Below, piece by piece: positions 19,892-38,598 of a stretch of 64,000 nt of DNA. How positions within the stretch are numbered: position 1 is the stretch's first letter; each line of letters opens with the position of its first letter. The notes below the pieces were generated by a model. It saw only the letters and a program-made list of their open reading frames with translations. It was not told the origin of the DNA and made no database searches. Source of the DNA: Sedimentisphaerales bacterium (GTDB lineage: Bacteria > Planctomycetota > Phycisphaerae > Sedimentisphaerales > SM23-30); NCBI GenBank assembly GCA_963663965.2, contig CAXXFK010000019.1, forward strand, positions 100,124 to 164,123. The letters run 5' to 3'. The position numbers and the translations under genes are program-made.

Positions 19892-20128
19892 ATGGTTACT
19901 ATCGGTTTAACCTGATCGGGAAATTATTGATTTATGAATGGAAAACGACCGATGGAGAATTTATACCCATCGGGTATAGAAATTCTGATTACTCGTAATC
20001 CAAGTACTTGATTTTAAATGAGTTATTTTACGGCCAGGGAGCGTTTTTTTATGTTTAATGGTTTGATCCATTCATATTTGGATAACAGAATGGTTGGTCT
20101 AATGACAGGAGTGAATGTTTGTTAGGTG

Positions 20129-21481: not shown

Positions 21482-21781
21482 TTAAAATTGACTGATTCTG
21501 ATATCGCCGCCCGGCATATGCGCGATCAATTCAAGCCGGCCACCCAGAGCCTGGATTAAGCGCCTCAAAGTACTGACTTGGATATCATCCTGTGATTCCA
21601 GTTTTGACAGGCTGGGTTGCCTGATTCCGATGGCTTCGGCGATGTCCTGCTGAGTAAATCCAGCCTGTTGGCGTATTTCCGCCAGGAGCATTTCGGCCAT
21701 TGCCTCTTTTGCTTTGGCAGTGGCGTTTGCCAGGCGTTCGGGTTTCATCTGTTTTTCGAGTAATTCAAAATTTTTAGCCAT
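21482..21781 (-). CDS. XRE HTH antitoxin (HigA-like)
   Basis: LAEIRQQAGFTQQDIAEAIGIRQPSLSKLE helix-turn-helix; directly downstream of the toxin, overlapping its stop. Confidence 0.9.
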   Translation of the reverse strand: MAKNFELLEKQMKPERLANATAKAKEAMAEMLLAEIRQQAGFTQQDIAEAIGIRQPSLSKLESQDDIQVSTLRRLIQALGGRLELIAHMPGGDIRISQF

Positions 21782-22137
21782 TATACCAATCCTTCATTTT
21801 CTAATTCTTTTAAATGGTTATCGTATAACTGGTCTGCAAGAGGTATCATTTTTTCGTAAAATCGGTTGTCTCCGGTTTTGTCACCTCCTATCAGCAAGAT
21901 CGCACAACGTCTTGGATCAAATGCATATAAAGTTCTTAATGGCAGGCCACTACTTTGCGTTCGTAATTCTCTCATATTTTTATGTTTAGATCCTTTCAGA
22001 GTGTCAGCATGGGGCCGGGGTAATGAGGGCCCCAGATTTCGTAATAATTGAACACTCATCGCGATGTCTTCCTGCTGATCTTCTGATAAAGTATGCCACC
22101 ACACTCCAAATTCATCGGTATATTCCACTGTCCACAT
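21781..22137 (-). CDS. RelE/HigB-like toxin (phage Gp49-like)
   Basis: GPSLPRPHADTLKGSKHKNMRELR and AFDPRRCAILLIGGDKTG; toxin-first gene order. Confidence 0.9.
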   Translation of the reverse strand: MWTVEYTDEFGVWWHTLSEDQQEDIAMSVQLLRNLGPSLPRPHADTLKGSKHKNMRELRTQSSGLPLRTLYAFDPRRCAILLIGGDKTGDNRFYEKMIPLADQLYDNHLKELENEGLV

Positions 22138-22422: not shown

Positions 22423-24012
22423 ATGGATAAATTATGTAAGACTTTAAATATCAGCTTGTTATGTTTTCTGATCGGGCTGTTGGGTTTGAATGTCCACCTG
22501 GATGGGGCGGAGAAGGACTGGTTTATCTATCTGGGCGATAAGAAGCCGCCGAAGGCGCCGCAGAAGAGTATGAGCAGTGCTGAGGCGCTGCCGCCGTTGC
22601 CGCTGCCGGCGGTGCCGTTGCGGCGGACGGAGCGGAAGAAGCCGCCGCAGCCGGATTATCTGATAGGCAAGGTGATCTGGGGTGAGGCGGGCACGTTTGT
22701 GGACAGCAATCAGCATACGATGGAGATTGCGGATTGGAATTTGTGTCCGACGGATGTGCAGAAATTGCTGGAGCAGACCCGGCAGATCGAGCTGTTTTAT
22801 CACTGGAGTAATATCAACCTGAGCGGATTTCATTACGATCCGAAACAGTTACCGGCGCTGCTGTTCAGCGGGGTGCGGACGTTGCGGCTGGATGATCAAA
22901 CGATCGGATCGCTAAGGAATTATGTATTGGATGGGGGGATGATCGTGTGCGATTCGATTGCCGGGTCGCCGTGGTTTTATGAATCGTGCCGGGAGGTATT
23001 CAATAAGATGTTTCCGGAGAGCCGGGTGCGGATTTTGCCGCTGGATCATCCATTGTATCATATTATCGCGGATATCGGGCAGGTGACCTATCCGCGCGGG
23101 CGGGAGATTGCCGATAGGGAGGGGAACGGGCGTTTTACGGGTGTGAAAGAGGTGGGAGCGCCGTTACTGGAGGGGGTATACGTGGGATCGCGGGTAGGGG
23201 TGTTGATCAGCAAGTATGGGCTGGGCTGCGGGTGGAACCAGAATATGGAGAATGTGCAGACATTGAAGCAGGCGGTGTATTTCGATATTGACAGCGCAAC
23301 CCGGCTGGGATTGAATCTGGCGGCTTATATGGTGGGTTACGCGGAGGCCGGGGTGTTGGAAGGACGGGCGGAGGTGTTTGGCCTGGCGGATCAACGTCCG
23401 CCGACGGATGAGTTTGTATTCGCGCAGATCAAGCATGGCGGGGGGTGGAATGTGCATCCGAACAGCGCCGGGGCGTTACTGATGAAGCTGCGGCGGTTGA
23501 CGTCGGTGCGGGTGAATCTGAAGCGGACGGCGATTACGCTGGGAAAGGATGATCTGGCGGATTACCCGTTTTTGTACCTGACGGGGCTGGATGATTTTGT
23601 TTTGAGTCAGGCTGAGGTGGAGGCGTTACAGCGATTTTTAGGGCAAGGCGGATTTCTATTAATCAATAACGGGCTGGGATTATCGACCTTCGATCAGGCG
23701 GTTCGGCGCGAGATGGCGCGGGTAATGGGCGGGGCGCAGTTTGAGCCGTTGCCGGAACGGCATGAACTGTACGGCAGTCTGTTTGAGATCAAAGAGGTGC
23801 AGTACAGTCCGGTCTTGCGCAAGGCGATGCCGGATATGAAGACGCCGAAACTGCTGGGGGCGACGCTGGGCGGGGAGTTGAAGGTGTTGTACAGTCCTTA
23901 CGATCTGGAGGCGGGCTGGCTGGAGGTGTATTATCCGATGCTGCGCGGTTATGAGCCGTTGAGCGCGCAGCAACTGGGAATGAATATTGTGACTTATATT
24001 TTGACGCATTAA
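22423..24012 (+). CDS. Secreted tandem DUF4159-domain protein
   Basis: Signal peptide; two related halves (LRNYVLDGGMIV / LQRFLGQGGFLL; DHPLY / HELY; LGLNL / LGMNI). Confidence 0.75.
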   Translation: MDKLCKTLNISLLCFLIGLLGLNVHLDGAEKDWFIYLGDKKPPKAPQKSMSSAEALPPLPLPAVPLRRTERKKPPQPDYLIGKVIWGEAGTFVDSNQHTMEIADWNLCPTDVQKLLEQTRQIELFYHWSNINLSGFHYDPKQLPALLFSGVRTLRLDDQTIGSLRNYVLDGGMIVCDSIAGSPWFYESCREVFNKMFPESRVRILPLDHPLYHIIADIGQVTYPRGREIADREGNGRFTGVKEVGAPLLEGVYVGSRVGVLISKYGLGCGWNQNMENVQTLKQAVYFDIDSATRLGLNLAAYMVGYAEAGVLEGRAEVFGLADQRPPTDEFVFAQIKHGGGWNVHPNSAGALLMKLRRLTSVRVNLKRTAITLGKDDLADYPFLYLTGLDDFVLSQAEVEALQRFLGQGGFLLINNGLGLSTFDQAVRREMARVMGGAQFEPLPERHELYGSLFEIKEVQYSPVLRKAMPDMKTPKLLGATLGGELKVLYSPYDLEAGWLEVYYPMLRGYEPLSAQQLGMNIVTYILTH

Positions 24013-24071
24013 TCTGGTTTTGATTGATCTGTATCCATTGGGTACAGAAACATCTACTCGCTCGCAGGAAA

Positions 24072-24097
24072 AGAGACGCGAGGCTTCGCGTCTCTAC
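24072..24097 (-). repeat. GTAG-type REP-like palindrome
   Basis: The minus strand reads GTAGAGACGCGAAGCCTCGCGTCTCT: a GTAG foot and a 10-bp stem. Confidence 0.65.
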
Positions 24098-24176
24098 CCG
24101 TGTGACCAGTGGGCATTTAATTGTTAATGGTAATATTAAAGCCGAAACGAAAGAACGATTCAGTTTTGAGGTGTTT

Positions 24177-25424
24177 ATGCAGCAGTCTGTGACGATACGG
24201 TGTCCGCAGTGTTTGAAGACGTATGAATTGCCGAAGGTGTTTGAAGGGCAACCGGTGCGTTGTCAGTGCAGTCATGAGTTTCAGATATCGAATGAGACGG
24301 TGATTGCGGGTATGGCCAGTCCGCCGGTGATGATGGTGGGGAATCAGCCGGGAGCGGCAGCGGGAACACCAGCCCAAGGCCAGACGCCAGGGAGCGGGCA
24401 GGGGCCAGCGGGAGGGGCCAGTGCGGCCGGAGGAGTGACGGCCAATACAGCAGCGGCGGTGGAGACGCTGGGACGGGCGCGCGGGATGATACTGGAGGAA
24501 GTAGGGAAGGTGATCGTGGGTCAGAAGCAGGTGCTGGATGAGGTATTAACAGCGTTTTTCGCGCGGGGGCATTGTCTGCTGATGGGCGTGCCGGGCCTGG
24601 CCAAGACGCTGATGGTGCAATGTCTGGCACGGACGATGATGCTGGATTTCAAAAGGATTCAGTTTACCCCGGATCTGATGCCGACGGATATTACCGGGAC
24701 GAATATTCTGGAAGAAGATCCCCAGACCCGGCAACGTCATTTTGTCTTTCACAAGGGGCCGATTTTCACCAATGTACTGCTGGCGGATGAGATTAACCGA
24801 ACGCCGCCCAAGACGCAGGCGGCGCTGCTGGAGGCGATGCAGGAACAGAAAGTAACCGCGTCCGGGACGACCTATTCGCTGCCGAATCCATTTCTGGCGC
24901 TGGCGACCCAGAACCCGCTGGAACAGGAGGGGACTTATCCGCTGCCGGAGGCGCAACTGGACCGGTTTTTGTTTCTGGTTAAAGTTGATTATCCGGATGA
25001 ACGGGATGAACAGCAGATCTTATTGACGACGACGGGTACGGCGATGCAGGAGTTGCGGGCAGTGCTGGATGGCCCGTCCATTTTACGGTATCAGAACCTG
25101 GTACGTCAGGTGCCGGTGAGTGAGCATGTGGCGGGTTACGCGGCGCGGCTGACCCGGGCGACCCGGCCGAAATCGGCCGACGCGCCGGATTTTATCAATA
25201 AGTGGGTACGATACGGGTGCGGGCCGCGCGCCGGTCAGGCGCTGATTCTGGCGGCAAAGGCGCATGTGATTTTGAATGGGCGGTTTAATGTGTCGTGTGA
25301 AGATATCCGGCGGTACGCGTTGCCGGTGATGCGGCATCGGATGATTTTGAACTTCGCGGCGGTGAGTGAAGGGGTGGATACTGACGAGGTGATCCGGCGG
25401 TTGTTGGATCATGTGGGGGAGTAG
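24177..25424 (+). CDS. MoxR-family AAA+ ATPase with an N-terminal zinc-ribbon extension
   Basis: GVPGLAKT Walker A; RIQFTPDLMPTDITG; LADEINRTPPKTQAALLEAMQE; EGTYPLPEAQLDRF; N-terminal CPQC...CQC. Confidence 0.95.
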   Translation: MQQSVTIRCPQCLKTYELPKVFEGQPVRCQCSHEFQISNETVIAGMASPPVMMVGNQPGAAAGTPAQGQTPGSGQGPAGGASAAGGVTANTAAAVETLGRARGMILEEVGKVIVGQKQVLDEVLTAFFARGHCLLMGVPGLAKTLMVQCLARTMMLDFKRIQFTPDLMPTDITGTNILEEDPQTRQRHFVFHKGPIFTNVLLADEINRTPPKTQAALLEAMQEQKVTASGTTYSLPNPFLALATQNPLEQEGTYPLPEAQLDRFLFLVKVDYPDERDEQQILLTTTGTAMQELRAVLDGPSILRYQNLVRQVPVSEHVAGYAARLTRATRPKSADAPDFINKWVRYGCGPRAGQALILAAKAHVILNGRFNVSCEDIRRYALPVMRHRMILNFAAVSEGVDTDEVIRRLLDHVGE

Positions 25425-25442
25425 GGGAGTAAAAAAGTTTCA

Positions 25443-25466
25443 CACGAAGCCACGAAGCCACGAAGG
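25443..25466 (+). repeat. 8-bp tandem repeat (CACGAAGC x2 + CACGAAGG)
   Basis: Read directly from the sequence, 18 bp after the moxR stop. Confidence 0.75.
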
Positions 25467-25578
25467 GAAGAAAGGTTAAAAGTGGATATAGAGATCATAG
25501 GTAAAGAGATAGTCGATTCAGCAATGAAGATAGATCCCAAAAAAGGAAAATTCGTGTATTTGGAGGTTTAGTGTTGAT

Positions 25579-26031
25579 ATGGCCTGTTCTTATGTTAGTT
25601 GCTATATACATTATATTTTCAGTACAAAATACCATCGTTGCAGTATCACTCAAGATATTAAATCGAGGCTCTGGCAATATTTTGGTGGTATTGCCAAAGA
25701 GAATAAGATGACATTATTAGAAGCTAATGGCACTAATGATCATGTTCATTTATTGGTGATTTTACCAGCGACCCTTTCGATTGCCAAGGCGATTCAATAT
25801 CTAAAGGGTGGATCATCCAAATGGATACACGATCAATTTCCGCATTCGATGCAATTTTCGTGGCAGGAAGGTTATGGCGCTTTTTCTGTGAGTCGTTCCG
25901 GCGTTGATAGAACAATAGAATATATTCGAAATCAGGAAACTCATCATCGAACCATGACTTTTGAAGAGGAGTATGTCCGATTTCTTGATAAATATGGAGT
26001 TACCTATGAGATGCAGTATGTATTCGATTAA
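25579..26031 (+). mobile_element. tnpA: IS200/IS605-family Y1 (HUH) transposase TnpA, no TnpB; RAYT-like context
   Basis: HYIFSTK, DHVH (HUH), WQEGYGAFSVS and YIRNQ (catalytic Tyr); AT-rich relative to its neighbours. Confidence 0.92.
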
Positions 26032-26032
26032 T

Positions 26033-26289
26033 ACTTTCGTCCCTACGGGACTTACTCGTTCCAGGGGGGGCCATAAACCCGCAGTTAAAACTGCGGGCTA
26101 TTAACTTATGTCCCTAGCGGGACATTTTTGGGAATGTTCGGATTACCGAATACCCGCCGTTAAAACGGCGGGCTACGCACTTTCGTCCCTACGGGACTTA
26201 CTCGTTTCAAGGGGGGCCACCCGCAGTTAAAACTGCGGGCTATTAACTTATGTCCCTGACGGGACATTTTTTGGTCCGCCTGCGGCGGA
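26033..26289. repeat. Array of alternating palindromes (REP/BIME-like) downstream of tnpA
   Basis: Type A, GTCCC-N3/4-GGGAC, at 26039, 26110, 26185 and 26252. Type B, CCCGC(A/C)GTTAAAAC(T/G)GCGGG, at 26078, 26153 and 26220. A ~95-bp block is duplicated at 26033 and 26179. Confidence 0.9.
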
Positions 26290-26329
26290 GATCGATGATA
26301 TATGAATGTATTATAATTATGGAATCTGA

Positions 26330-27244
26330 ATGTTAACAAGTGATGGTTATAAATATTTGCGGGCGGAGGTGGCTGAGCGGCTGCGGGGGATGGAAGTCAA
26401 TGTGCGGCGGCCGATGGATGGGAGTTTGCAGGGTCTGCATCGTTCGCCGGTGTTTGGATCGTCGGTGGAGTTCGCGGAATATCGGGAATATCTGCCGGGC
26501 GATCCGATCAGCCGGATCGACTGGCCGGTGTACGCGCGGAGCGACCGGTATGTGATCCGGCAATATCATGAGGATATCAGTATCCGGTGTTATATTTTAC
26601 TGGATGTGTCGGAGAGTATGACGTATCGAGACAAGGGCGTGGGGGGGCTGTCGAAGCTGGAATATGCCTGTCATCTGGCGGCGGGAATGGCGTATCTGAT
26701 GGTGCATCAGGGTGACACAGTGGCGATGGTGACATTCGATAACCGGATCCGTGATTTTTATGAGCCGGCCGGGACGTTGATGGGATTGAAGCCGATGTTG
26801 ACGGGGTTGGAGGCGATCGAGGCGCGGCGTGAGGGCTCGATAGAGGCGGCTCTGCACGGCGCGGCGGATTTGATCACGGGCCGGGCGATGGTGGTACTGA
26901 TCTCGGACCTGCTGGAGGAGCCGGGCAGGATTATGCAGGGGATCGCGCATCTGTATCATGACGGCAAGGACATCACCGTATTTCATGTGCTGGATCCGGG
27001 CGAATTGCGGCTGCCGCAGGTGGATGAGCTGGGCAGTACGACGCTGGTGGATGTGCATGGAATGGAGCAGGAGGGGCGGTTGACGGTGGATCTGGCGCAG
27101 ATCCGGGAGAGCTATCTGGAGCAGGTGCATGGTTATCTGAACGAAATCCGGGCGGCCTGTTCGAATACGCATACGGAGTATGTTCTGGCGGAGACGGACC
27201 GGGAGGTGTATGAGGCGTTGCTGACGCGGAGCCGGATGGTGTGA
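26330..27244 (+). CDS. DUF58 (vWA-type) protein, MoxR partner
   Basis: GLHRSP.FGSSVEFAEYREY.PGD...IDW; DVSESM MIDAS; LISD. Confidence 0.93.
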   Translation: MLTSDGYKYLRAEVAERLRGMEVNVRRPMDGSLQGLHRSPVFGSSVEFAEYREYLPGDPISRIDWPVYARSDRYVIRQYHEDISIRCYILLDVSESMTYRDKGVGGLSKLEYACHLAAGMAYLMVHQGDTVAMVTFDNRIRDFYEPAGTLMGLKPMLTGLEAIEARREGSIEAALHGAADLITGRAMVVLISDLLEEPGRIMQGIAHLYHDGKDITVFHVLDPGELRLPQVDELGSTTLVDVHGMEQEGRLTVDLAQIRESYLEQVHGYLNEIRAACSNTHTEYVLAETDREVYEALLTRSRMV

Positions 27245-27247
27245 AAG

Positions 27248-27284
27248 AAAAAGTCAAAAAGTCAAAAAGGCTAGAAGGCAAAAA
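27248..27284 (+). repeat. Degenerate 8-bp tandem repeat (AAAAAGTC / AAAAAGGC)
   Basis: AAAAAGTC AAAAAGTC AAAAAGGC TAGAAGGC AAAAA immediately after the DUF58 stop. Confidence 0.65.
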
Positions 27285-27302
27285 TTTTTAAGGAAAGTTA
27301 TT

Positions 27303-27752
27303 ATGAAACAGTATGTTGAAAAAGCGGTGGAAAAATTTAAAAGCGGTTATAATTGCGCGCAGTCGGCGTTTTATCCATTTTGTGAGGCGGCAGGATTGGA
27401 TCTTGAGCCGGGGATGAAGCTGTCGTGCGGACTGGGCGGCGGTATGGGACGGACGCAGCAGGTATGCGGCGCGGTGACGGGCGGAATTCTGGCGCTGGGT
27501 CTTAAATATGGCCGGGGTATGAACGATACGCGGGCGGCAACGGAGGCGACTTATGAAAAGGTGCGGGAGTTGATCAGCCGGTTTGAGGCGAAACATGGCA
27601 CGTGTGTCTGTCGTGAGCTGCTGAAAGGCTGCGATATGCTAAGCGAAGAAGGTATGGCGCGTATCAAAGCGGAGGATATGCACAGTACGATCTGTGAGCC
27701 GTGTGTGGCAAGCGTAGTGGAGATTGTCGCGGATATGCTGGCAAGGACATAA
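27303..27752 (+). CDS. C_GCAxxG_C_C family putative redox protein
   Basis: YNCAQS, GGGMG...VCGAVTGG, CVCRELL and C-terminal C..CV. Confidence 0.9.
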   Translation: MKQYVEKAVEKFKSGYNCAQSAFYPFCEAAGLDLEPGMKLSCGLGGGMGRTQQVCGAVTGGILALGLKYGRGMNDTRAATEATYEKVRELISRFEAKHGTCVCRELLKGCDMLSEEGMARIKAEDMHSTICEPCVASVVEIVADMLART

Positions 27753-27783
27753 ACATCTTATTTTGGCAATCAACTAACGACTT

Positions 27784-29985
27784 ATGATTTTTGGATCGAC
27801 CCTATTTTTGTATTTATTACCACTGGCAGTACTGCCAGTGGTGTTTCATTTTCTGTTGAAGCAGAAGAAGCGTAAGCTGTTTTTTTCGACGTTGATGTTT
27901 TTTCACCGGACCGATCCGCGTTTGCATTCGCGGCGCCGGATTCGAGAATGGTTGATTTTAATGCTGCGGATGCTGTTGATTGCGCTGGTGTTGCTGGCGC
28001 TGGGCCGGCCGGTTTGGCGGCTGGGCAGCGCGGGTGGCGGTTCGGATCAGGTGATTGTGATTGACAATTCGGCATCGATGGCCGGCTTGAGTGTGGATGG
28101 GCAGAGCCGGTTGGCGCTGGCGTTGGATGGGGCGCGTAAATTGCTGACCGCGGGGAGCGCCGAGCGTACGATTCTGGCTACGACAGTGCCGGATGCGTTA
28201 TTGGCGTTTCCGGAGACATTTTCTTCGGACAGGGCTGACCTGATCGATCGACTGGAACGGATCCAGCCGACACATGGTGTGGGCGAACCGGGCCGGGCAG
28301 TGGAAAAGGCGATACAATGGCTGACGGATGGCCCGGCGGGAGGCGGGACAGTACATGTCTTTACGGATTTGCAGGAAAATGACTGGTCTGGATTTGAGCA
28401 ACTGAGCGGGCGGCTGCGGCCGGGGAACTGTGCCGTGGCGATCCATCGGATCGAGCCGATGATCCGGGACCAGGCCAACGGGGCGATTCGTGCGGTACAG
28501 GCGCCGCCGGGACGGTTACTGCCCAGGCATACCTATTCGGTAGGGTTCACGATTCAGAATACCAGCGGGTATCCGCTCAAGGCGGATTTGAATCTGCTGG
28601 ACAGTGAGGGTGTGAGCCGGCGGGAGAGTGTGACGATCCAGGCGCATCTGGCCCGGACGGTTTATGCCGATATGGAGTTGCGTGAGCCGGCGGTTGCGGT
28701 GGGCGCTGAAGACAGCGCGGAAGGATTCTACTGGATGCGGGCCTGGCTGGAGGGGGACAGCTTTGCCGGGGATAATGAAGCGAGCGCGGTGCTGTATTGT
28801 TCACCCCGGGCAAAGGTTTTGCTGGTGGGCAAGCCGGGAGATTTCGGGGTGTTGCCGATGGCGTTATCGCCGGGTGGAGCGGGTAATTTTACCGGGTTGG
28901 TAACGGTGAATTGTGAGTTGGATGCGTTGGCCGGCCGGATCGAAAATGAGCGGCCGGTGATGGTGGTGATAAGCTGGGAATCAGCAAAGGCATTGAAAGA
29001 TCAGGCGGAGAGCACGTTTTTACTGGATACGATCCGTAGCGGCGTGAATCTGTTGATTACACCCGCTGCCGATGAAAAGGAAGTCGTTGGCGGTGACCTG
29101 CTGACCGGTTGGCTGGGAGCGGAACTGTATGGGGGCAAGGAAAACGAGAATGGAATCCGGATCAGCACTCTGGAGCGGCGGGCGCGCTTCTGGCAGGATG
29201 CCACAATGCAGCAACGCAGCGGTGCGACCCTGGCGGACGCGTTTAATCAGGAGAGTATCCGGGCACTGCGCTGGTATCCGTTGCGATTGACGGCGCGTTA
29301 CGATCCATTACTGGGCAGCGGGTATGACAATGTGGTGCTGGCTGAACGGCGAATGGATCAGGGGATGATTTATCTTTCGGGTCTGGGTTTTGACCGGGCC
29401 TGGAGCAACCTGCCGGCGTCGGGGTTGATGGTGATCCTGGCACAGCGGATGGCCCTGTCGAGCCTGGCCCGGACCGAACTGGCGCCGCGTGTTTATGCCA
29501 TGGCGGCCGGGTCGACAGCCGCGACAGCGGAGATGGCTGGTGAGGGGCAGGTGGTTTCGCTGGCGGGCGATTCGCTGGAATGGCATGGTCCGCTCGATGG
29601 ACTGGCGGGAATCGCGCGCAGTGGAGTTTATCTAGTGGCGGCTGGCGATGAGAAATATTGTCTGGCGGTGCAGGCGGACAGTCAGGAGGGGGTGGATAAT
29701 TATTACGATGTGACGGGCGGGAATGAATTGAAGGTGGATCATACCTACTGCCTGGTGCGGCCTTACAGTATTGAGGCGCTGGGGCGACCGGATCTGCTGG
29801 CCCAGATCGGGGCGGTTGATTTGTTTGTGCCGATGTTGATCCTGGCGGCGCTGGCATTGATTGGAGAAGGATTACTGGCCAATCCCAGGATTCGTCGTCA
29901 GTCGGAAACGGCGCCGGCGGGGGTATGGCATCGGATGGATGTGGAGACCGTCCAACCGGCGGAACCAGCAGGGGAGGTGGTGTGA
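27784..29985 (+). CDS. BatA-type N-terminal membrane anchor plus vWA domain protein
   Basis: LPVVFHF...FSTLMF...LRML...LALGRP; DNSASM MIDAS; VFTDLQ; C-terminal TM. Confidence 0.88.
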   Translation: MIFGSTLFLYLLPLAVLPVVFHFLLKQKKRKLFFSTLMFFHRTDPRLHSRRRIREWLILMLRMLLIALVLLALGRPVWRLGSAGGGSDQVIVIDNSASMAGLSVDGQSRLALALDGARKLLTAGSAERTILATTVPDALLAFPETFSSDRADLIDRLERIQPTHGVGEPGRAVEKAIQWLTDGPAGGGTVHVFTDLQENDWSGFEQLSGRLRPGNCAVAIHRIEPMIRDQANGAIRAVQAPPGRLLPRHTYSVGFTIQNTSGYPLKADLNLLDSEGVSRRESVTIQAHLARTVYADMELREPAVAVGAEDSAEGFYWMRAWLEGDSFAGDNEASAVLYCSPRAKVLLVGKPGDFGVLPMALSPGGAGNFTGLVTVNCELDALAGRIENERPVMVVISWESAKALKDQAESTFLLDTIRSGVNLLITPAADEKEVVGGDLLTGWLGAELYGGKENENGIRISTLERRARFWQDATMQQRSGATLADAFNQESIRALRWYPLRLTARYDPLLGSGYDNVVLAERRMDQGMIYLSGLGFDRAWSNLPASGLMVILAQRMALSSLARTELAPRVYAMAAGSTAATAEMAGEGQVVSLAGDSLEWHGPLDGLAGIARSGVYLVAAGDEKYCLAVQADSQEGVDNYYDVTGGNELKVDHTYCLVRPYSIEALGRPDLLAQIGAVDLFVPMLILAALALIGEGLLANPRIRRQSETAPAGVWHRMDVETVQPAEPAGEVV

Positions 29986-32315
29986 TGGGATTGTTGCGCT
30001 GGCGAGGTCAGATCGATCCATTAATCCTGACGATTATCGTTCTGGTATTAATTGGACTGGTGGTATTGATTTATCGCCGTCAGGTCGGGTTGCGGCCTTT
30101 GCGGAATACCTTGTTATTGACGATACCCAAAGCATTGATTGCGGTCTGTCTGATCATGGCCTGCCTGGATCCGGTCTGGAGTATTTTGAAACCGCCGGAG
30201 ACCAATAAGAAAATTCTGATTGTGACCGATACCTCCTCATCAATGGCGGTGCAGGATCGCTATCAACTGAGTCGGCAGAGCCGGGCAGGTGATCTGGAAA
30301 AGCGGCTGATGGACCGGCTAAACAATTATATCCAGTTTGAGACGCTGGAATTTGATACAAGTTTGCATGAACCGGATAAGCAAAGGCAGAACCCTGAGCA
30401 ATTACGCAATACCGACCTGGGCAAGTGTCTGGTGGATCTGGCGGAACGGAAGGATATCGGTTCGTATAAAGCGGTCCTGCTGGTGACCGATGGCGGCGAT
30501 GAACGAATTCAGAATCCACGGTTGCCACAGGCGGCGGTTTATGTGGCCGGGATCGGAACGGATGTGGAACATTGTAACGATTTGTCACTGACGGGACTGG
30601 AGCATCCGGCCTCGGTGGAGGAGCAGAGCGATTTCGATGTGACGGTGGATCTGGCAGCCTGGTGCGCGGCGGATTTTCCAGATCGGAACCAGCAGCTAAG
30701 CGGGCAGGATACCGATTTTGCCAATCGGGCCCGAGAGGTGATGGTGCGACTGGAGGAGCAGGTGGAGAGCCGCTGGGTTGACCGGGGCCAGAGTAAGGCG
30801 GCCATGGATGGCAGCGGCCCGCGCCGGGGCCGGATTTCGTTTCGGGTGAAGAGTCCGCGCCGGGACGATCAAAAAGAGGATACGCAGGCTGCGTCGGTGG
30901 TCCGGTCATTTCGGGTGCGGATACCGGAATCGGAAGGTGAATTTTCGAGCCTGAATAACGAGCGGACATTTACCGTGGAACAGACCGCACGCACACTGCA
31001 TGTGTTGTTTTATGCCCATGAAATCGGTTGGGATTTTAATACGATCCGTAAGGAACTGGCCCAGGATCCGGCGATCGCGCTGACGGCGCTGTTTCGTTTG
31101 AGCGGCGGGCGGGTGGAGCGGTATGTGGTGCAGGGTGACCGGCAGGAAGGGGATGAGAGTTTGAACCAGGGATTTCCGGCCAGGGTTGAGGTTTTGAACC
31201 AGTATAAATGTATTATTCTGGGTTCGTTTCCGGCGCAGGGCTGGACGGAGGATCAGATGGGTGCGCTGACGGAGTATGTCAAAGAGGGTGGGGCGGTAGT
31301 ATTTCTGGGTGGTGATTATTCGTTTGGACGGGGTGGGTATGGCACGACGGCGCTGGCAGGTTTGATGCCCTGGCAGATCCGCGCGGATGAACCAGCCTTG
31401 AAGGCGGGCCGGTTTCCGGTGAGTGTGGCGGTGGAGGCGCTGGACCATAGTCTGATCGCAGAGGCGGGCAGCCGGATCCAGGATGCCGGGTCGGAGGCCG
31501 TGTTGGAGAGCGTCAATCAGCCGGGCCCGTTGCGAACCGGCGCGATGGCATTGCTGGAGACGACGGTGGGTAATGAACCGGTGGCCGTGGTGGCGTTACA
31601 GCAGTATGGCCAGGGACGGACGCTGGGAATCGCGACCAATACCTTCTGGCGCTGGACCCGGTCAGGCCCGGCGCTGGCGGAGGCGTACGGTCATTTCTGG
31701 CGTCAGGCAGTCCGGTATCTGACAGGCGAGGAAGAAGGCGGCCGGATGATATCGGTACGCTGGGATCAGCCCTATTACAGTCCGGGCGAGCAGGCCGAGC
31801 CGACGATCCGGCTGGCCGGGGGACAGGATGCCGGGCAGGTGCATTTGCGGGCGGCGCTGACGTATAAAGGAGAAAAGCAAGCATTGACCTTGCAGTCGGT
31901 CGTGGGGAATACGCGGCAGTTTACTGTGAAAGTGCCGTTTGGTGAGAAAGGGGATTACCTGTTTCGGCTGGAGGCGCTGGCCGGACAGGATATTGTGAGT
32001 GGCGGTGGGGAGGCTGAGCCGCTGGAATATTATGAAAAAACCCTGACGGTGGGTGGAAGGCTGAATGAGGGGGCGAATCTGGAGATTACGCCGGCAACCC
32101 ACGCGTTTCTGGAGAACCTGGCAACCCAGGGCGGGGGGCGTTATTTCCGGGAGGATCATCAGGATCTGCTGTTTGATGAACTGGAGTCGCTGGTGCTGGC
32201 GGATGCAGTGACGATGGAGATTCCGCTGGTTGAGCATCGGTTTGTGTACCTGGGGATCGTAATGACGATTTTGATGGTGGAATGGTTTGTACGGCGCAGG
32301 ATGAATTTGATATAA
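29985..32315 (+). CDS. Membrane protein with vWA and glutamine-amidotransferase-like domains
   Basis: Two N-terminal TMs; DTSSSM, LVTDGG, YVKEGGAVVFLGG, QYGQGR...WRW; C-terminal EWFVRRR. Its ATG overlaps the upstream stop. Confidence 0.82.
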   Translation: MGLLRWRGQIDPLILTIIVLVLIGLVVLIYRRQVGLRPLRNTLLLTIPKALIAVCLIMACLDPVWSILKPPETNKKILIVTDTSSSMAVQDRYQLSRQSRAGDLEKRLMDRLNNYIQFETLEFDTSLHEPDKQRQNPEQLRNTDLGKCLVDLAERKDIGSYKAVLLVTDGGDERIQNPRLPQAAVYVAGIGTDVEHCNDLSLTGLEHPASVEEQSDFDVTVDLAAWCAADFPDRNQQLSGQDTDFANRAREVMVRLEEQVESRWVDRGQSKAAMDGSGPRRGRISFRVKSPRRDDQKEDTQAASVVRSFRVRIPESEGEFSSLNNERTFTVEQTARTLHVLFYAHEIGWDFNTIRKELAQDPAIALTALFRLSGGRVERYVVQGDRQEGDESLNQGFPARVEVLNQYKCIILGSFPAQGWTEDQMGALTEYVKEGGAVVFLGGDYSFGRGGYGTTALAGLMPWQIRADEPALKAGRFPVSVAVEALDHSLIAEAGSRIQDAGSEAVLESVNQPGPLRTGAMALLETTVGNEPVAVVALQQYGQGRTLGIATNTFWRWTRSGPALAEAYGHFWRQAVRYLTGEEEGGRMISVRWDQPYYSPGEQAEPTIRLAGGQDAGQVHLRAALTYKGEKQALTLQSVVGNTRQFTVKVPFGEKGDYLFRLEALAGQDIVSGGGEAEPLEYYEKTLTVGGRLNEGANLEITPATHAFLENLATQGGGRYFREDHQDLLFDELESLVLADAVTMEIPLVEHRFVYLGIVMTILMVEWFVRRRMNLI

Positions 32316-32438
32316 TGGATGTTGGATCTAATAGGTATGAACGTTCCTGATCGTTCACAAGATAAGCATTTACTTGTGGAGAACTGATATCACGGCCCAA
32401 CAGGCATTTTCATTTTAAAATGGTATCATGAGGCAATA

Positions 32439-33254
32439 ATGGATTCTAAAAGACATATCATTTTGAACCTGATTCGAGAAGGGGAAAGTATTTCCCTGGA
32501 ATTTAAAGAATGTCGTACCCGACTTAGCCGCGATGTCTATGAGACCGTATGTGCGTTTCTTAATCGACATGGCGGGACATTATTGTTGGGTGTGAATGAC
32601 CGCGGAGAGGTTATTGGCATTGATCCGGAACTAGTTGAGGGCGATATATTCAGGATTGTCATTCCGGTCACTCAGGACGGGGTGACAACAAGTGAAGAAA
32701 TAAACAAGTCGGGGCCAGAGTCGAGGCTAGAGTCAGAGCCAGAGTTGAGGCCCGAGTCACTGGAACGGCGTGTATTAGAGGTATTGATTGGCCATCGCTT
32801 GTCAAAAATTGAACTTGCCCGTGCTTTAGGTCATACCAGTGTATCGGGAGCGCTTAATCAGGTTGTTCGTAACCTGTTGTTAAAGAATGAGATCGAGTTT
32901 ACGATGCCTGAAAAGCCCCGCAGCCGGATGCAAAAATATCGATTAACTGAAAAAGGGCGGCAAGTTATGCGGACGATGCAAAAAACCAACCTGCAAACCC
33001 CTCCTCAAGTAACCCCACAAGTAAAAAGTATGTTAAAGATAATAACCAGAGACATGAGCCGAAAAGAAATACAAGATAAACTCGGTTTAAAAGACAGGTC
33101 TTCACTGTTTGAGAATTACTTAAATCCAGGACTGGAAGCAGGCTTGATTGAGAAGACACAACCCAATTCACCCAATAGTCCAACACAAAAATACCGCCTG
33201 ACTGCAAAGGGGCACCAGTTTATTTCCAGGATAGAAGAAAATGATAATTTATAA
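32439..33254 (+). pseudogene. Internally deleted Schlafen/AlbA_2 protein with two tandem winged-helix C-terminal tails
   Basis: GESISLEFKE...VCAFLNRHGGTLLLGVND is cut after about 63 aa; the tail motif P..P.S..QKYRLT.KG occurs twice; AT-rich. The frame is open, so it may still be translated. Confidence 0.6.
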
Positions 33255-34569
33255 GAACGCTAATATGTTTTGTGCTGGAATCAAGCGGAATAGACATATT
33301 ATTATCAGCTTGATTGTTTTAAGTTCCGTCATGGGTGCCAGTGGCGCTGAGCGTGTTAAGCGGATGGCGGCGGTTTATTATTCGGATGGGGCAGTGGAGA
33401 TGGGGAAGGTATCGTTACCGGCGGGGATCCGGTTTAAGTTGACGATACCGGAAGGGGGTTCGATCAGTACGACGGATATGATTACCGGGGAGGAAGTCAA
33501 ATATGGCAAGGCGCGGCTGTTCGACCTGTCAGGATTGCGTGAGTTGCAGTTTTACCCGGTGCGTGAGGAGATGCGTCGCGACTGGAAATTTGTGGGGAAA
33601 ACCCAATACAATGAAGAGACCGCGGAGGCCGATTACAGTCCGGCGCCGAAGGAATACAGCGGGGATCCTTATCCGTTGCGGTATCTGGAAACGGCGGTGG
33701 AGTTTGGCAGTGGAGAGACCATCAGCGGGCATCTGTATTCGGTGACGCTTTATCTGGAAATGGAGCCCGGGGCGGGAAGTGGAGAGGATGATTTTCTGGC
33801 GATGCGGCAGCGGCGGGTGGTGAAAAAGTTGCTGTTGACCAGTAAACAGCGGGGCGAGAAGAAGACCGGCTTAAAGGATCTGGTTTATATTGAGCGGATC
33901 CGTTTTCTGGATGCGGGACGAGACTTCGGCGCGGAAGTGAGGATTATGGCGCAGGGAGAGGCTGTGACTAAAGAGAATATGCTTCAGGCAGTCACCCGCG
34001 AAACACTGACACCGGCGCCGACCATCTGGGATGATCAAACCGGAGGGTTTGTCGTACGGGCGAGTCTGGGCGAGCCGTTTTATCTGGCGATGAAGGCTGA
34101 CGATTGTTATGTCGTTGGCTGGCCGGAGAAAAGCGATCCGGAACTGATGAAACTGGCGAAAGACCACCTGGAACGTCAGCGCGATTTTTACAACGATAAA
34201 AAACTGTTGGGGGCGATCTGGCTGGAAGAGGGTAAAGAAGTCCTGACGCTGGTGAATTTACGGCGACGGCACGCCGAAACGAATTTTGGCGAGATTGGCG
34301 GTGAGTGGGACAAGGAGGTGGGGGGTATTGTGGAACCATGGCGATTGAGTTTGTGGCGCTGGAAATATGACAGTCGGAATAAGGAGATGATTTTGACTGG
34401 ACGGGGGACATTTTATCGCAAGATCCTGCTGCCAGAGGAGCCGACGCCTGAGGTCGTGACAACACCGGCTTTATGGGCGCTGCCATATGATGAGCAGAAC
34501 CATACGGTTCGATTCGATAGTGAGGCTTTATTTAAAAGCATTCAGGTTAAGATGAAGGGCGATCGATAA
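33241..34569 (+). CDS. Secreted hypothetical protein of the MoxR cluster (start may be 33265)
   Basis: Long ORF with operon-like codon usage; signal-peptide-like IIISLIVLSSVMGASGA. Confidence 0.75.
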   Translation: MIIYKNANMFCAGIKRNRHIIISLIVLSSVMGASGAERVKRMAAVYYSDGAVEMGKVSLPAGIRFKLTIPEGGSISTTDMITGEEVKYGKARLFDLSGLRELQFYPVREEMRRDWKFVGKTQYNEETAEADYSPAPKEYSGDPYPLRYLETAVEFGSGETISGHLYSVTLYLEMEPGAGSGEDDFLAMRQRRVVKKLLLTSKQRGEKKTGLKDLVYIERIRFLDAGRDFGAEVRIMAQGEAVTKENMLQAVTRETLTPAPTIWDDQTGGFVVRASLGEPFYLAMKADDCYVVGWPEKSDPELMKLAKDHLERQRDFYNDKKLLGAIWLEEGKEVLTLVNLRRRHAETNFGEIGGEWDKEVGGIVEPWRLSLWRWKYDSRNKEMILTGRGTFYRKILLPEEPTPEVVTTPALWALPYDEQNHTVRFDSEALFKSIQVKMKGDR

Positions 34570-34571
34570 TC

Positions 34572-37500
34572 ATGGCGACGATATCAGTGAATCAACGTGA
34601 GATTTATCCCATTGTCAACCAGGCCAGGCAAACGCTTTGGCGGGCGCGGGTTTTGCTGGGGCTGCTGGCCTGGCTGGGAATGTGCCTGTCGGTCTGGCTG
34701 GTGTTATTCTGGCTGGATAATGTTCTGCACCTGCCGGCGGGGATGCGGCTGGCATTGTCGCTGGCAGGATTAGGAATGACTATCACCCTGTTGTGGCGTG
34801 ATTTGTTGCTGCCGATGGGTCAGAAGGAAGATCCGGCACGGGTGGCGCTGCTGCTGGAGCGGCATTACGGCATCCCGCAGAATCTGCTGATTAATTCATT
34901 GCAATTTGAAGGCCGGCAACAGCCCGGGAGTGCAATGAGTTTGCAGGCGGTTGAACGGCCGTTTGCCGCGCGTACGATCCTGTCAGCGGTGAAGTTAACG
35001 GCTGAAATGAATTTTCGGGATTTGTGGCAATTTCGCCGGGTCAGTGTCTGGCTGCTGGGGGTGCTGGCGCTGGGGACGTTGTGGGTGGGATATGTCATGG
35101 CGCAGGGACATCTGGCGGGAAATGCCTGGCAGCGTTTTTCGCGGCCGCTGGCGGATATTCCTCCGGTGGGTTCAGTACGGTTGGAGGTCAGTCCGGGCGA
35201 GGCTATTCAGATTCCCCAGGGGGATGACCTGGAGATTGTCGCGCGGCTGTCGGATTATCGTCCGGACGCGTTGCGACGCAAAGGGCTGCGGACGCATCCG
35301 CAGATTGTGTGGCTGGAAGATGGGGATTATGTTTCGCCGGATAGCGAACGGGATGGAGCTATTGCCATGCGGGCGGATGATAGCGAGTCGGGGGTGTATC
35401 GTTACCGGTTCAACCGGGTGCGGCGCCCGTTTGCGTTTCGGGTGTTTGCGGCGGATACTTACAGCCGCAGTATTCAGGTTGGAGTGAATACCGCCGCAAC
35501 GATGGCAGGTTCGCAGGTCTGGGTGACGCCACCGGCCTATACAGCCAGGGATGAGGCGCAGGCGGGTTCGCTGGCTGATACGATCGCGGTATTGCCGGGC
35601 AGTACGATTCGGGTGCGGGCGCGGTTAAGTAAAGCGGCGGAGGGTTTATGGTGGATCACTACGGCCGGAGAGCAGCCATTTAACCAGAAGGATGAAAAGG
35701 ACTGGTGGGAGTGTGGTTATGAAGTGGCTGGGAATGATACCTGGCAACTAATGGTAAAGGGGGTTGGCATTGACCGGCGGATTCAGATTGGTGAAGGAGC
35801 GATTAACCTGGTTCAGGACCGGGCGCCCCAGGTGGCCTTTGGGGGGAGTGGTAATTATCATGCTGATCCGGGTGAGCGCCTCAAGCTGGATTTGACGGCG
35901 CTGGATGATTATGGCCTGGCGTGGCTGCGCGTGACAATCCGGCCGGCCCGTACCGAGGAGACACCCACCGTGTTGAAAGAATGGGCCTGGTCTGATCTGC
36001 CGGGGCGACGGGAAGCGCTGAAGGAGCCGGTGGTGTTTTCGCTGGATAGCGACCGGTACGCGCCGGGAGAGAGCTATCTGGTGGAGGCTGTAGGCGCCGA
36101 TCACTGCCCGGAGGAGAACCGGGGAGAGGCGCGGCCGGTGTTGATTCAGATTCGCGCGATCAATGAGATGGAGAGCCCGGAATCCATGCGGGATGATGCT
36201 GCCTGGCGCGAGCTGGATGCGGCGATCGAGGCACAGCAATCGGCGTTGGGTACGAATCGGAATATCCAGTCGAACCTGGGGGAAATCGTTGCGGATAAAA
36301 AGGCGAACGAAGTACCCGGGCTGATTGGACAGCATGTTAACGAACTGGCTCGCCGGCAGGATAGTGTGGGTGGGCATTTGCGAGGGGCCTGGTCGATGAC
36401 ACGCGATCCGCGGCCGCAATTTGTGCAGAAAATGAAGGAACTGGAAGAAGTGGAGCATCAAAAGGTGTTGGATCTGATTCGGGATACCCGGTTTGATCCA
36501 CAGACAGGCGCGGGGGCGGTCGTGGATGATCTGCGGGCGGCAGAACGGTTGCAGAATTATATTTTGAGTCGTCTGGTGGCGTTGAAGGGGGATACGATCC
36601 AGGCGTATGAGGAGCGTCAGGCGCAGGCGCTGGGGGAGGCGGGTGCGGATCTGGCCGAAGAGACGCTGACTGAGACGATGAGTGAGAAGGCTGAGATTTT
36701 TATGGCGGAGCTGGAGAATTTTGTAGCGGGACAAAAAACGATCATGCACGAACGGGAGATGCTGCAGGAACGGGATGGGCAGGATTTCAGTCAGGCGGAT
36801 GAGGACCGATTTGAAGAGCTGGCGATCGATCAGTCGCGGCTGGCGGAGATTCTGGCCAGCGCGGTGAACGATTTTACCAATCTGGATATGCAGGATTTCG
36901 GCGATGACGCGATGGTGCATGACATGAAAACGATATTCGCTCACGCCGATGACCTGGCTGACGCGGCGGAGCAGGCGGCGGATGACCGTCAGGCGCGGGT
37001 GGACGCTTACCGGCTGGAAACGCAGGCGGTGGAGATGGCCGAAGAATTAATTATCAATTGTGAGGCGACTTTTGGGGGCAGTGACGATATTCAGTTTATC
37101 GCGGAAGTGGCTGAGGATGAGCAACTGGTCGCGCCGCTGGCGGAACTGCCGACGGAATTGGAGGATATGGTGGGCGATCTGGCGACGACGGCGGAGGATA
37201 TGCGGCCGGAGGTGGAAGACATCGGTTTTTATATGAATTCACTGGATCATACGGCCGGGCCGATCAGTGACGGGACTATTGCCAGTATGAGCGCCAAGGG
37301 GATGACGGGTAACCAGAAGCCGGAAGATAACATTATCCAGGGACGCAGCGGGGCCGGCCGAAGCGGCATGGCGGATGGACAGATGGTGGAGTCGGTGGCC
37401 AAGGATCTGACCGATAATGAATACGCCCTACGTGAACGAATGAGCGGAACGCCACTGGAATCGGGTCAGGTAAAAGATGAAGATGTGGGGGCACAGACGG

Positions 37501-37952
37501 GCGGTACGGGACTGGGTAAAACGTCGGATCAGGCCAGTCTATTCGGGCCGGGCGGGAAGTTGCCGCCGCAGATGCTGGAGCGGATGAAGGCGGTGCGTCA
37601 ACAGCAGCAAGCCATGTTGCAATCCGCCAATCAGGCGATCCCCCAGTTACAACGGCATAATCTTTCGGTGAAGGAATTGAAAGAAGCGATCGACGCGTTG
37701 AATCGATTTGATGAGGCACTGGAGCGCCGTGACGGAGTGGGGATCCGGTCGCATTACAGCGAGGCGGTTGATTCGCTGCAACGTTCGCGCGCACGAGTGG
37801 GGGAACAGATCGCGATTCAGTATCGACGCGATACCAGCCGGCCGAATCAGCTGGATAATCTGCTCTCGCAGCAGCAGGGCGGGCGTTATAAAGGGTATGA
37901 ACAGATGATTGGCGCCTATTTTGAGGCGATTTCTAAAGGCGGAGAGAAATGA
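34572..37952 (+). CDS. Large membrane-anchored protein (DUF4175-like): TMs, Ig-like domains and a long acidic helical region
   Basis: Three N-terminal TMs; VTPPAYT, DRAPQV and ALDDYGL motifs; C-terminal YEQMIGAYFEAI. Confidence 0.75.
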   Translation: MATISVNQREIYPIVNQARQTLWRARVLLGLLAWLGMCLSVWLVLFWLDNVLHLPAGMRLALSLAGLGMTITLLWRDLLLPMGQKEDPARVALLLERHYGIPQNLLINSLQFEGRQQPGSAMSLQAVERPFAARTILSAVKLTAEMNFRDLWQFRRVSVWLLGVLALGTLWVGYVMAQGHLAGNAWQRFSRPLADIPPVGSVRLEVSPGEAIQIPQGDDLEIVARLSDYRPDALRRKGLRTHPQIVWLEDGDYVSPDSERDGAIAMRADDSESGVYRYRFNRVRRPFAFRVFAADTYSRSIQVGVNTAATMAGSQVWVTPPAYTARDEAQAGSLADTIAVLPGSTIRVRARLSKAAEGLWWITTAGEQPFNQKDEKDWWECGYEVAGNDTWQLMVKGVGIDRRIQIGEGAINLVQDRAPQVAFGGSGNYHADPGERLKLDLTALDDYGLAWLRVTIRPARTEETPTVLKEWAWSDLPGRREALKEPVVFSLDSDRYAPGESYLVEAVGADHCPEENRGEARPVLIQIRAINEMESPESMRDDAAWRELDAAIEAQQSALGTNRNIQSNLGEIVADKKANEVPGLIGQHVNELARRQDSVGGHLRGAWSMTRDPRPQFVQKMKELEEVEHQKVLDLIRDTRFDPQTGAGAVVDDLRAAERLQNYILSRLVALKGDTIQAYEERQAQALGEAGADLAEETLTETMSEKAEIFMAELENFVAGQKTIMHEREMLQERDGQDFSQADEDRFEELAIDQSRLAEILASAVNDFTNLDMQDFGDDAMVHDMKTIFAHADDLADAAEQAADDRQARVDAYRLETQAVEMAEELIINCEATFGGSDDIQFIAEVAEDEQLVAPLAELPTELEDMVGDLATTAEDMRPEVEDIGFYMNSLDHTAGPISDGTIASMSAKGMTGNQKPEDNIIQGRSGAGRSGMADGQMVESVAKDLTDNEYALRERMSGTPLESGQVKDEDVGAQTGGTGLGKTSDQASLFGPGGKLPPQMLERMKAVRQQQQAMLQSANQAIPQLQRHNLSVKELKEAIDALNRFDEALERRDGVGIRSHYSEAVDSLQRSRARVGEQIAIQYRRDTSRPNQLDNLLSQQQGGRYKGYEQMIGAYFEAISKGGEK

Positions 37953-38022
37953 TGCGGTTGGCATGAATAGTCATTTTGTTATTCATTCACGCAGAGCTAC
38001 CGGCAATGACAAACCAAGCCCC

Positions 38023-38051
38023 TTGAAACAGATAATAAATCTTGTTATAAT
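38023..38051 (+). promoter_or_regulatory. Sigma70 promoter of the TA cassette (extended -10)
   Basis: TTGAAA-N17-TATAAT, with TG one base upstream of the -10. Confidence 0.7.
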
Positions 38052-38092
38052 TTGATTATTACACCAAATACCAGCTTAAGAAGGATAAATAT

Positions 38093-38305
38093 ATGCAGAT
38101 TGATAATGCCCTTATAGATCAGGCGTTAAAACTAAAACCTCAGGAAAAGCTCCTGATGGTAGAGCTATTAATGCAAAGTTTAGACAAACCCGATGAGCAG
38201 ATCGCTGAAATCTGGCTACAGGAAGCTGAGCGACGGTTGCACGCTTATCAATCGGGACATTGTAAAGGGATTCCAGTAGAAGAAGTATTTGGGGAACCTT
38301 TATGA
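38093..38305 (+). CDS. Addiction-module antitoxin (unstable antitoxin family)
   Basis: ALKLKPQEK...SLD...W.QEAERRL.AY..G...GIP.EEVF pattern; upstream of a RelE/ParE gene. Confidence 0.88.
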   Translation: MQIDNALIDQALKLKPQEKLLMVELLMQSLDKPDEQIAEIWLQEAERRLHAYQSGHCKGIPVEEVFGEPL

Positions 38306-38598
38306 ATATCCTGTTTGATGCCCTGGCTGAAAAAGAATTCAATGAAGCAATTGAGTATTATGATATTCAGATGGAGGGTTTAGGCAAACAGCTCAAAGAT
38401 GAAATCAGACAGGCATTGCGAATATTACAGCGTTTTCCAGAATCAGGGCCGGTAGAGCGAGGCGTTATTCGTCGAATAAAAGTGCAGAAATTCCCCTATA
38501 AGATTTTATATACCTTGCTGGATGATATTATTCTGGTTATTGCTATTGCTCATTTACATCGTGAACCCTATTATTGGGTCGAGCGTTACTTAACATGA
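38302..38598 (+). CDS. RelE/ParE-family toxin
   Basis: AEKEFNEAIEYY...GLG, FPESG, KFPYKILY and IAIAHLHREPYYW. Confidence 0.9.
   Translation: MNILFDALAEKEFNEAIEYYDIQMEGLGKQLKDEIRQALRILQRFPESGPVERGVIRRIKVQKFPYKILYTLLDDIILVIAIAHLHREPYYWVERYLT

Follow-up and report, generated by a model that had tools for sequence, protein, structure and literature searches.

Accessory inserts fill five of the seven gene junctions of a MoxR-vWA operon in a Sedimentisphaerales bacterium

The window analysed here is a stretch of 64,000 nucleotides from a Sedimentisphaerales bacterium (assembly GCA_963663965.2, contig CAXXFK010000019.1), and coordinates are positions within it. On its plus strand lies an operon of eight core genes, c1 to c8: DUF4159 (c1, 22423-24012; PF13709, orthologues 56-66% identical), a MoxR AAA ATPase (c2, 24177-25424; AAA_3 and AAA_lid_2), DUF58 (c3, 26330-27244, with an SRMV-stop end as in several orthologues), BatA/vWA (c4, 27784-29985), a vWA-like gene (c5, 29985-32315), two genes without a Pfam or NCBIfam match (c6, 33241-34569; c7, 34572-37952) and NPCBM/PA14/PKD (c8, 38595-41138), the named families all being Pfam assignments. 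The seven gaps between these genes, J1 to J7, measure 164, 905, 539, -1, 925, 2 and 642 bp. Five are filled, four of them by genes (J2, J3, J5 and J7) and the fifth (J1) by a repeat alone, and no core gene is broken by an insert. An earlier note on this DNA had described these five filled junctions, two tight empty ones (J4 and J6), inserted genes lying on the operon strand and unbroken core open reading frames; gap measurements and Pfam, which recovers every gene named, bear this out. The same note had proposed a mechanism that targets, or selection that tolerates, cassettes at gene boundaries. As detailed below, the pile-up is real and unusual for this genome, and it looks like an accumulation of known kinds of element and not like a new integron-like machine.

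The genome assembly consists of 42 contigs and is 94.6% complete. Contigs of one public sample span J1, J3, J5 and J7, with breaks solely at the J2 repeats; among the listed joints none skips an insert; this sample is possibly the source of the assembly, and the bridging serves as an assembly check only. Two public sequencing runs, both from one sample, are listed as carrying the stretch, one further run holds almost none of its words, and there is no RNA run among the listed carriers.

J1 contains a degenerate copy (24032-24132, plus strand) of a repeat of about 102 bp, recognised by alignment and with a hidden Markov model (HMM) built from this genome, in which it ranks 159 of 199. We take this repeat to be comparable to the enterobacterial repetitive intergenic consensus (ERIC), or intergenic repeat unit (IRU), class of miniature repeats, with which it shares a length of about 100 bp, TATAC...GTATA ends, a central hairpin, an intergenic location and many copies; unlike these, it belongs to a different sequence family, and related ends occur in 5 of 100 genomes of the order (G009, G012, G015, G023 and G422). 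A second degenerate copy (32328-32425, plus strand; HMM rank 102 of 199, alignment) opens J5, which makes this ERIC-like repeat the sole element present in more than one filled junction. Genome-wide it is not in excess at co-oriented junctions, and its strand is independent of that of the flanking genes (63 to 51, p 0.30). A further copy lies in the window at 19962-20044. The repetitive extragenic palindrome (REP) that the earlier note had placed in J1 is there, but it sits inside the ERIC-like repeat: a GTAG-type REP-like palindrome (about 24073-24097) stands in place of the central hairpin (fold z -2.88), and 7 of the 28 GTAG-type palindrome sites in the genome fall within the ERIC-like repeat. 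Such nesting of a tagged palindrome in a larger repeat is also a feature of some REP families in the excerpts of PMC6006769 and PMC3733652 consulted.

J2 was described as a tnpA gene with a palindrome array; this was confirmed, except that the junction holds two different elements. The first is a hairpin (25442-25574, plus strand) whose 5' arm is made of three CACGAAGC words and whose mirror arm is degenerate (fold z -2.16, with 4 of 200 shuffles equally good); its word family has 46 matches in the genome. From its sequence, the hairpin is possibly a collapsed GxxExxY-type cassette. Its inner peptide is the best of 79 peptides compared with the GxxExxY N-terminus, but at a non-significant E of 0.86 a GxxExxY remnant is no more than a lead. 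The second element comprises an IS200-like Y1 transposase gene (tnpA, 25579-26031, plus strand; PF01797; NF033573 at 80 bits, cut-off 55) and a double-hairpin palindrome array of the Acido-Lenti-1 type (26033-26274, plus strand), with direct repeats, folds of z -5.6 and -4.1, and an RF01687 match of 46.2 bits at 26153-26198 (gathering score 37). By signature the transposase belongs to TnpA-Y1 subclass 1.2, with its Y---Q--HH motif (the defining signature according to PMC6006769), short core and low copy number (2 in the genome). A REP-associated tyrosine transposase was ruled out, as the motif is not Y---NP and NF047646 gives 21 bits against a cut-off of 80.

The association between this transposase subclass and the Acido-Lenti-1 palindromes extends beyond J2. 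Of the 20 tnpA-homologue loci of this subclass (L330-L349), 9 carry Acido-Lenti-1 at the gathering score, and 10 of the 11 matches are at most a few hundred bases away from the gene. Besides, the palindromes beside subclass 1.2 tnpA genes start with CGTC, and for CGTC-tagged repeats PMC3733652 reports that a dedicated transposase is lacking. Subclass 1.2 genes are described, in the part of PMC6006769 at hand, as generally lacking typical IS200 end structures; the J2 gene, in contrast, has Acido-Lenti-1 palindromes at its flanks, as do its homologues. Acido-Lenti-1 may be the end structure of subclass 1.2 tnpA elements rather than a free RNA. A 2026 preprint, in the portion seen, still terms it a family of unknown function, and the tables, alignment and diagram available from the PMC2864571 supplement carry no comment on function.

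In J3, tandem AAAAAGTC words (27248-27271, plus strand; fold z -0.52) follow just 3' of the c3 stop; a mirror arm was looked for around this array and none was found. Both 8-bp tandem repeats that had been reported after upstream stops are in the sequence, and such arrays directly after a stop occur at only 5 of the 2419 co-oriented junctions of the genome, J2 and J3 being two of the five. The array precedes a C_GCAxxG_C_C gene (27303-27752, plus strand; PF09719, TIGR01909), the sole copy in the genome, which is intact and has a host-like composition (GC 0.54, GC at third codon positions (GC3) 0.59, third-position skew 0.50); it is probably an old insertion. J5 holds, behind its ERIC-like repeat, an AlbA_2/RecG-C-type gene (32439-33254, plus strand) with Pfam matches to AlbA_2 and two Fic-like_C domains. 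Alignment with 5 full-length relatives, which are about 480-510 aa long, reveals a clean in-frame loss of about 310 residues between two Asp-Pro sites, so that the catalytic middle is gone, as well as an additional Fic-like C-terminal winged helix. The 3' end of this gene overlaps the start of c6 (33254 versus 33241).

The J7 insert is a pair encoding an addiction-module antitoxin and a ParE toxin (38093-38598, plus strand; PF09720 (Unstab_antitox), PF05016 (ParE) and TIGR02574). Its organisation is that of a type II toxin-antitoxin (TA) system, with an antitoxin gene overlapping the downstream parE and a promoter-like site upstream, and the ParE stop overlaps the c8 start in the ATGA at 38595-38598, as the earlier note had stated. 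The predicted sigma-70-like promoter (TTGAAA-17-TATAAT, 38023-38051, plus strand) matches at 11 of 12 positions and is the best site of the region; the region has 16 promoter-like sites against a mean of 16.1 after shuffling, which leaves only the quality and the place of this one notable. The junction shows no mirrored arms (fold z 0.60). Terminator searches of the inserts were uninformative (21 sites, 18.0 expected by shuffling).

Altogether, the inserts fall into at least five unrelated classes without a common end motif, and some are nested or decayed; repeat searches and folds showed no boundary motif common to the five. Of the two options in the earlier note, a single mechanism targeting gene boundaries is left unsupported, whereas selection that tolerates inserts fits. 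GC3 amounts to 0.33 for tnpA, 0.35 for parE, 0.43 for the AlbA gene and 0.59 for the C_GCAxxG gene, compared with 0.60-0.72 for the core genes; most inserts are thus AT-rich, as reported, but the C_GCAxxG_C_C gene is not. Because GC3 ranges from 0.33 to 0.59, the inserts appear to differ in age.

Orthologous loci were gathered through a c6 alignment, yielding 52 loci from genomes and 80 of 98 from metagenomes and, with both neighbours placed, 445 distinct junctions (42, 47, 49, 60, 95, 91 and 61 for J1 to J7). None exceeds 367 bp, the longest spacer. A genome of another genus in the same family (G013) shares all eight genes, spaced by gaps of 27, 110, -4, -4, 9, -4 and -4 bp; c3 and c4 overlap by 4 bp in 49 of 49 cases, and the 1-bp overlap of c4 and c5 is the ancestral state, with 59 of 60 orthologous junctions at -1 or -4. 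No gene insert of J2, J3, J5 or J7 occurs in any of the sampled orthologous operons. A few orthologous spacers do contain open reading frames of 45-82 codons, mostly running through repeats. The searched genomes include no second member of the genus, distant orthologues are empty or hold repeats alone, and in a class-wide c6 search this genome stands alone among 201. These data show that the ancestral operon was tight, and that what fills its junctions is specific to the lineage whereas the core genes stay constant. Broken operons stand outside the count: one genus of the family has a dispersed operon with a solitary c1 (G004, G019, G023 and G024, i.e. L011, L013, L015 and L018), and some c6 homologues (L093, L094 and L099) have no core neighbours.

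The borders of two inserts preserve a further trace of the ancestral state. At J3 the stop/start overlap is found on both sides of the insert (GTGA...ATGA), with the c3 end and c4 start as in orthologues, and at J7 an overlap likewise lies on both sides (ATGA...ATGA), where 9 of the 16 next bases match too (p about 0.01, in one test among several). Because stop/start overlaps flank both inserts, we infer that a short duplication accompanied their entry.

The orthologues also bear on two explanations that assign the inserts a shared origin or role. That the inserts were recruited to serve the MoxR-vWA operon, as functional parts or as regulators, could be argued from the intact, host-like C_GCAxxG gene and from the TA promoter-like site, which could drive c8; with no insert in any orthologous operon, and with an AlbA gene that has lost its catalytic middle, we regard this as highly improbable. 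Import of the operon as a block, from a donor lineage rich in junction passengers, would account for the concentration of rare families, since the operon holds one of the two ParE genes, the sole C_GCAxxG gene and one of the two Fic-like_C genes of the genome, and most of the AlbA gene's named relatives come from deltaproteobacteria. The sole Gp49/HigB gene of the genome also adjoins the operon. It forms a HigB-like (Gp49) and helix-turn-helix pair (21482-22137; Pfam), which the earlier note had rightly seen upstream; its minus-strand location, however, makes the pair divergent from the operon, and it lies outside the junctions. Block import nevertheless appears quite unlikely: the repeats in J1, J2 and J5 come from families native to the genome (199 ERIC-like, 46 tandem-word and 11 Acido-Lenti-type hits), a quick c6 tree gives a long deep branch and no close donor, and the gene inserts are in no sampled orthologue. 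A foreign origin of the core operon by skew or GC was likewise ruled out, as the neighbouring genes match it in both.

The filling of junctions was then compared with the rest of the genome (5501 genes in our own calls), using about 2.4 Mb of G004, G013 and G017 and small pieces of G019 and G023. There are 205 conserved same-strand neighbour pairs; the relative keeps 172 of them tight, and 166 of these lie outside the operon. Genes are found here in 13 of the 166 (20 genes); 15 of the 20 were scanned, and 12 proved to be housekeeping-type or fragments and 3 without family, with no TA, transposase or GxxExxY gene among them. Gene-filled junctions thus amount to 4/7 in the operon and 13/166 elsewhere (Fisher p 0.002), and junctions with any of four repeat families to 3/7 and 0/166 (p 4e-5). 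Junction filling is a local hotspot beyond chance and not a genome-wide habit. Wedged accessory genes do occur elsewhere at low density: an antitoxin and ParE pair between ileS and a GAF gene, a full-length AlbA gene between proS and a DUF4416 gene, GxxExxY and four-helix-bundle genes in the rml operon, and a HepT/nucleotidyltransferase pair between two epimerase genes. In the latter (L315:1099-1928) the HepT-like gene is upstream of its nucleotidyltransferase partner; the usual order is the reverse.

A dedicated junction-targeting system, which the earlier note had likened to an integron lacking its integrase, for instance repeat-armed cassettes resembling intervening sequences (IVS) whose arms have since decayed and which were reloaded with other cargo, would draw on the rarity of the word arrays after the stops at J2 and J3 and on the stop/start overlaps duplicated at J3 and J7. 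It would also draw on the orthologous c2/c3 spacers, where 17 of 47 contain 7-9-base tandem words, many of them mirrored, so that non-coding passengers recur, and on the rml operon of the same genome, which holds intact armed GxxExxY and four-helix-bundle genes. Yet J1, J5 and J7 are without an arm, J3 has no mirror arm, the GxxExxY remnant of J2 is not significant, and the 166 other conserved junctions are free of repeats and, in the scanned genes, of mobile-type genes. In other planctomycetes, moreover, cargo homologues are mostly away from same-strand junctions: the two flanking genes share a strand at 10 of the 23 resolved loci of tnpA homologues (6 of 29 unresolved) and at 6 of the 20 resolved loci of ParE homologues (9 of 29 unresolved), which does not suit cassettes that target operon junctions. 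We therefore consider a dedicated system improbable.

The genome has 5 GxxExxY matches and 3 TIGR02436 matches, none within the operon. Three of the GxxExxY genes (C28 607912-608301; C30 near 139900-140262; C36 13835-14233) are flanked by direct, unmirrored, purine-rich word modules, which open with an AACAGCC motif and are also chained without genes; in skewed regions, 37 of 38 copies of this motif lie on the G-rich strand.

The shared orientation of the inserts had been read as a sign of targeting. Genome-wide, 3059 of 3519 genes between same-strand neighbours (87%) are co-oriented with them, as are 52 of 57 AT-rich short genes, and four inserts would all be co-oriented with a probability of 0.57 under this background. 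Because 87% of comparable genes are co-oriented, co-orientation is weak evidence, and taken alone co-orientation with an operon is no evidence for targeting.

A different kind of orientation was observed for two of the repeat families. Third-position skew is regional in this genome, with a correlation of 0.63 between adjacent genes on opposite strands. In skewed regions the CACGAAG word arrays lie on the G-rich strand in 43 of 43 cases (3 more are in flat regions, 46 hits at 39 sites), also when flanked by C-rich-strand genes (4/4), and Acido-Lenti-type units do so in 11 of 11 (8 sites), including 3 of 3 where the flanking genes are on the C-rich strand. Genes as a whole favour this strand in 2414 of 4153 cases (58%), and seven multi-copy transposase families taken as a control (six with a DDE or integrase-core domain, one with a weak DUF772 match alone) are split 20 G-rich to 22 C-rich; reverse transcriptase copies are 5 to 0. 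In this genome, the orientation of arrays and Acido-Lenti units tracks the G-rich strand and not transcription. The operon itself is on the G-rich strand with a skew of 0.25, at or above the 99th percentile of the genome, and repeat density climbs with skew (rho 0.19, p 2e-4).

This polarity has to be set against plain relaxed selection, in which insertion is blind to replication, a weakly expressed operon tolerates it between genes, and co-orientation results from selection against antisense or polar effects. The background co-orientation, the unbiased DDE elements, the decay of the inserts and the lack of a strand signal in other genomes are all in keeping with it. It does not account for arrays lying on the G-rich strand even against their flanking genes (4/4 and 3/3 for the two families), nor for the same rule at convergent and divergent junctions (14/14 and 4/4), and we judge it unlikely but not negligible.

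The explanation that we favour, with slightly more confidence than doubt, is a lineage-specific insertion hotspot, serially filled by several unrelated mobile systems, some of which enter single-stranded DNA at the replication fork, while selection weeds out insertions that are intragenic or polar. It is well established that the G-rich strand is the leading one; here it would correspond to leading-strand sequence, i.e. to the lagging-strand template, and the word arrays and Acido-Lenti-1 palindromes would enter as single-stranded DNA at replication forks in the manner of IS200/IS605 elements, which insert into the lagging-strand template according to the part of PMC6006769 consulted. The strand-polarised elements would then be co-oriented with the operon because the operon sits on the G-rich strand. 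Insertions within core genes would be purged by selection, and those between genes would survive if non-polar, through their own promoter, in-frame decay or a duplicated stop/start overlap. Least certain is the cause of the hotspot, which could be an unusually strong strand asymmetry together with weak selection on tight coupling.

Several observations weigh against this replication-linked hotspot. In 3-kb loci from other genomes the strand rule did not reappear, be it for tnpA (6 G-rich, 9 C-rich, 11 flat, 3 short-flanked; n=29), ParE (8 G-rich, 6 C-rich, 10 flat, 5 short-flanked; n=29) or GxxExxY (13 G-rich, 6 C-rich, 6 flat, 3 unscored; n=28). Within this genome, a second Y1-like family has 1 G-rich, 3 C-rich and 1 flat copy, and the Y1 genes taken together (10 G-rich to 3 C-rich) do not differ from the DDE control (p 0.11). 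The C-rich strand also carries the HigBA pair and one GxxExxY gene, and the ERIC-like repeat has only a mild G-rich bias (116/172). The wedged ileS-ParE, proS-AlbA and rml sites have ordinary skew (7th, 42nd and 20th percentile), and no mobilising enzyme was identified for the word arrays, the C_GCAxxG gene, the AlbA gene or the TA pair. Finally, origin and terminus are unlocated because the assembly is in 42 contigs.

A more specific form of the replication-linked hotspot is put forward only tentatively, as it is rather unlikely to be correct as a whole. The tandem-word arms of IVS-like cassettes and the Acido-Lenti-1 palindromes would both mark the termini of elements that move in single-stranded form into the lagging-strand template, Acido-Lenti-1 with subclass 1.2 Y1 transposases; stop/start overlaps would be duplicated on entry, and highly skewed leading-strand operons would become seeded with landing sites for further passengers. 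If true, junction filling would be coupled to replication and could be read from GC skew. What deserves to be pursued is the strand polarity of the arms, together with the Acido-Lenti-1 link: should the strand rule hold in closed genomes, it would provide a first testable handle on the movement of repeat-armed junction cassettes, and the Rfam family Acido-Lenti-1 would be reassigned to the ends of a transposase subclass. A literature search of incomplete coverage found no description of such junction cassettes or of a strand bias. The operon further offers a well-controlled example of small selfish genes accumulating between coupled genes without an integrase.

Integron cassettes depend on an IntI integrase and attC sites. 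The J1 to J7 inserts resemble them in being small co-oriented passenger genes that include a TA pair; unlike integron cassettes, the J5 and J7 inserts run into the core gene behind them, so that a 3' attC would have no space. The absence of an integrase and of attC sites reported earlier holds, since none of 13 tyrosine-recombinase matches in the genome exceeds the TIGR02249 cut-off, and a crude attC pattern scan returned 9 hits genome-wide with none on this contig; the J3 3' spacer gives no fold. Closer in kind are the minimal mobile elements (MMEs) of Neisseria, which carry differing cassettes per strain and are spread by homologous recombination in the part of PMC3082526 examined. As in that account, whole genes lie here between two conserved flanking genes without an integrase or att site of their own; unlike MMEs, filled and empty states are seen across genera alone, and five junctions of one operon are affected.

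The tandem-word arms after a stop and the long J2 hairpin are reminiscent of the IVS-like armed cassettes and of the open-reading-frame-bearing 23S rRNA intervening sequences in the excerpt of PMC4990558, and relatives have empty armed hairpins at the same junction. The operon differs from IVS cassettes, as far as that excerpt describes them, in lacking an intact IVS-family gene and in its unrelated cargo, and most arms in the genome are, unlike theirs, unpaired and strand-polarised.

Some further observations concern the surroundings and the core genes. Both c6, which is highly conserved with 280 homologues, and c7 are fixed members of the MoxR-vWA operon yet have no Pfam or NCBIfam family; the named c6 homologues come from Phycisphaerae and Sedimentisphaerales. 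Upstream, at 20129-21454 on the minus strand, a GDSL lipase is fused to a C-terminal HExxH-motif domain with a weak, below-cut-off PF07737 match (E 0.0034). The attC scan also returned a near-perfect 134-bp palindrome on contig C28 (96451-96584; -105 to -109 kcal/mol). Finally, a family of 279-aa open reading frames without a Pfam match (26 copies, e.g. L389) favours the C-rich strand, with 18 copies against 3 and 5 in flat regions, a bias in the other direction.

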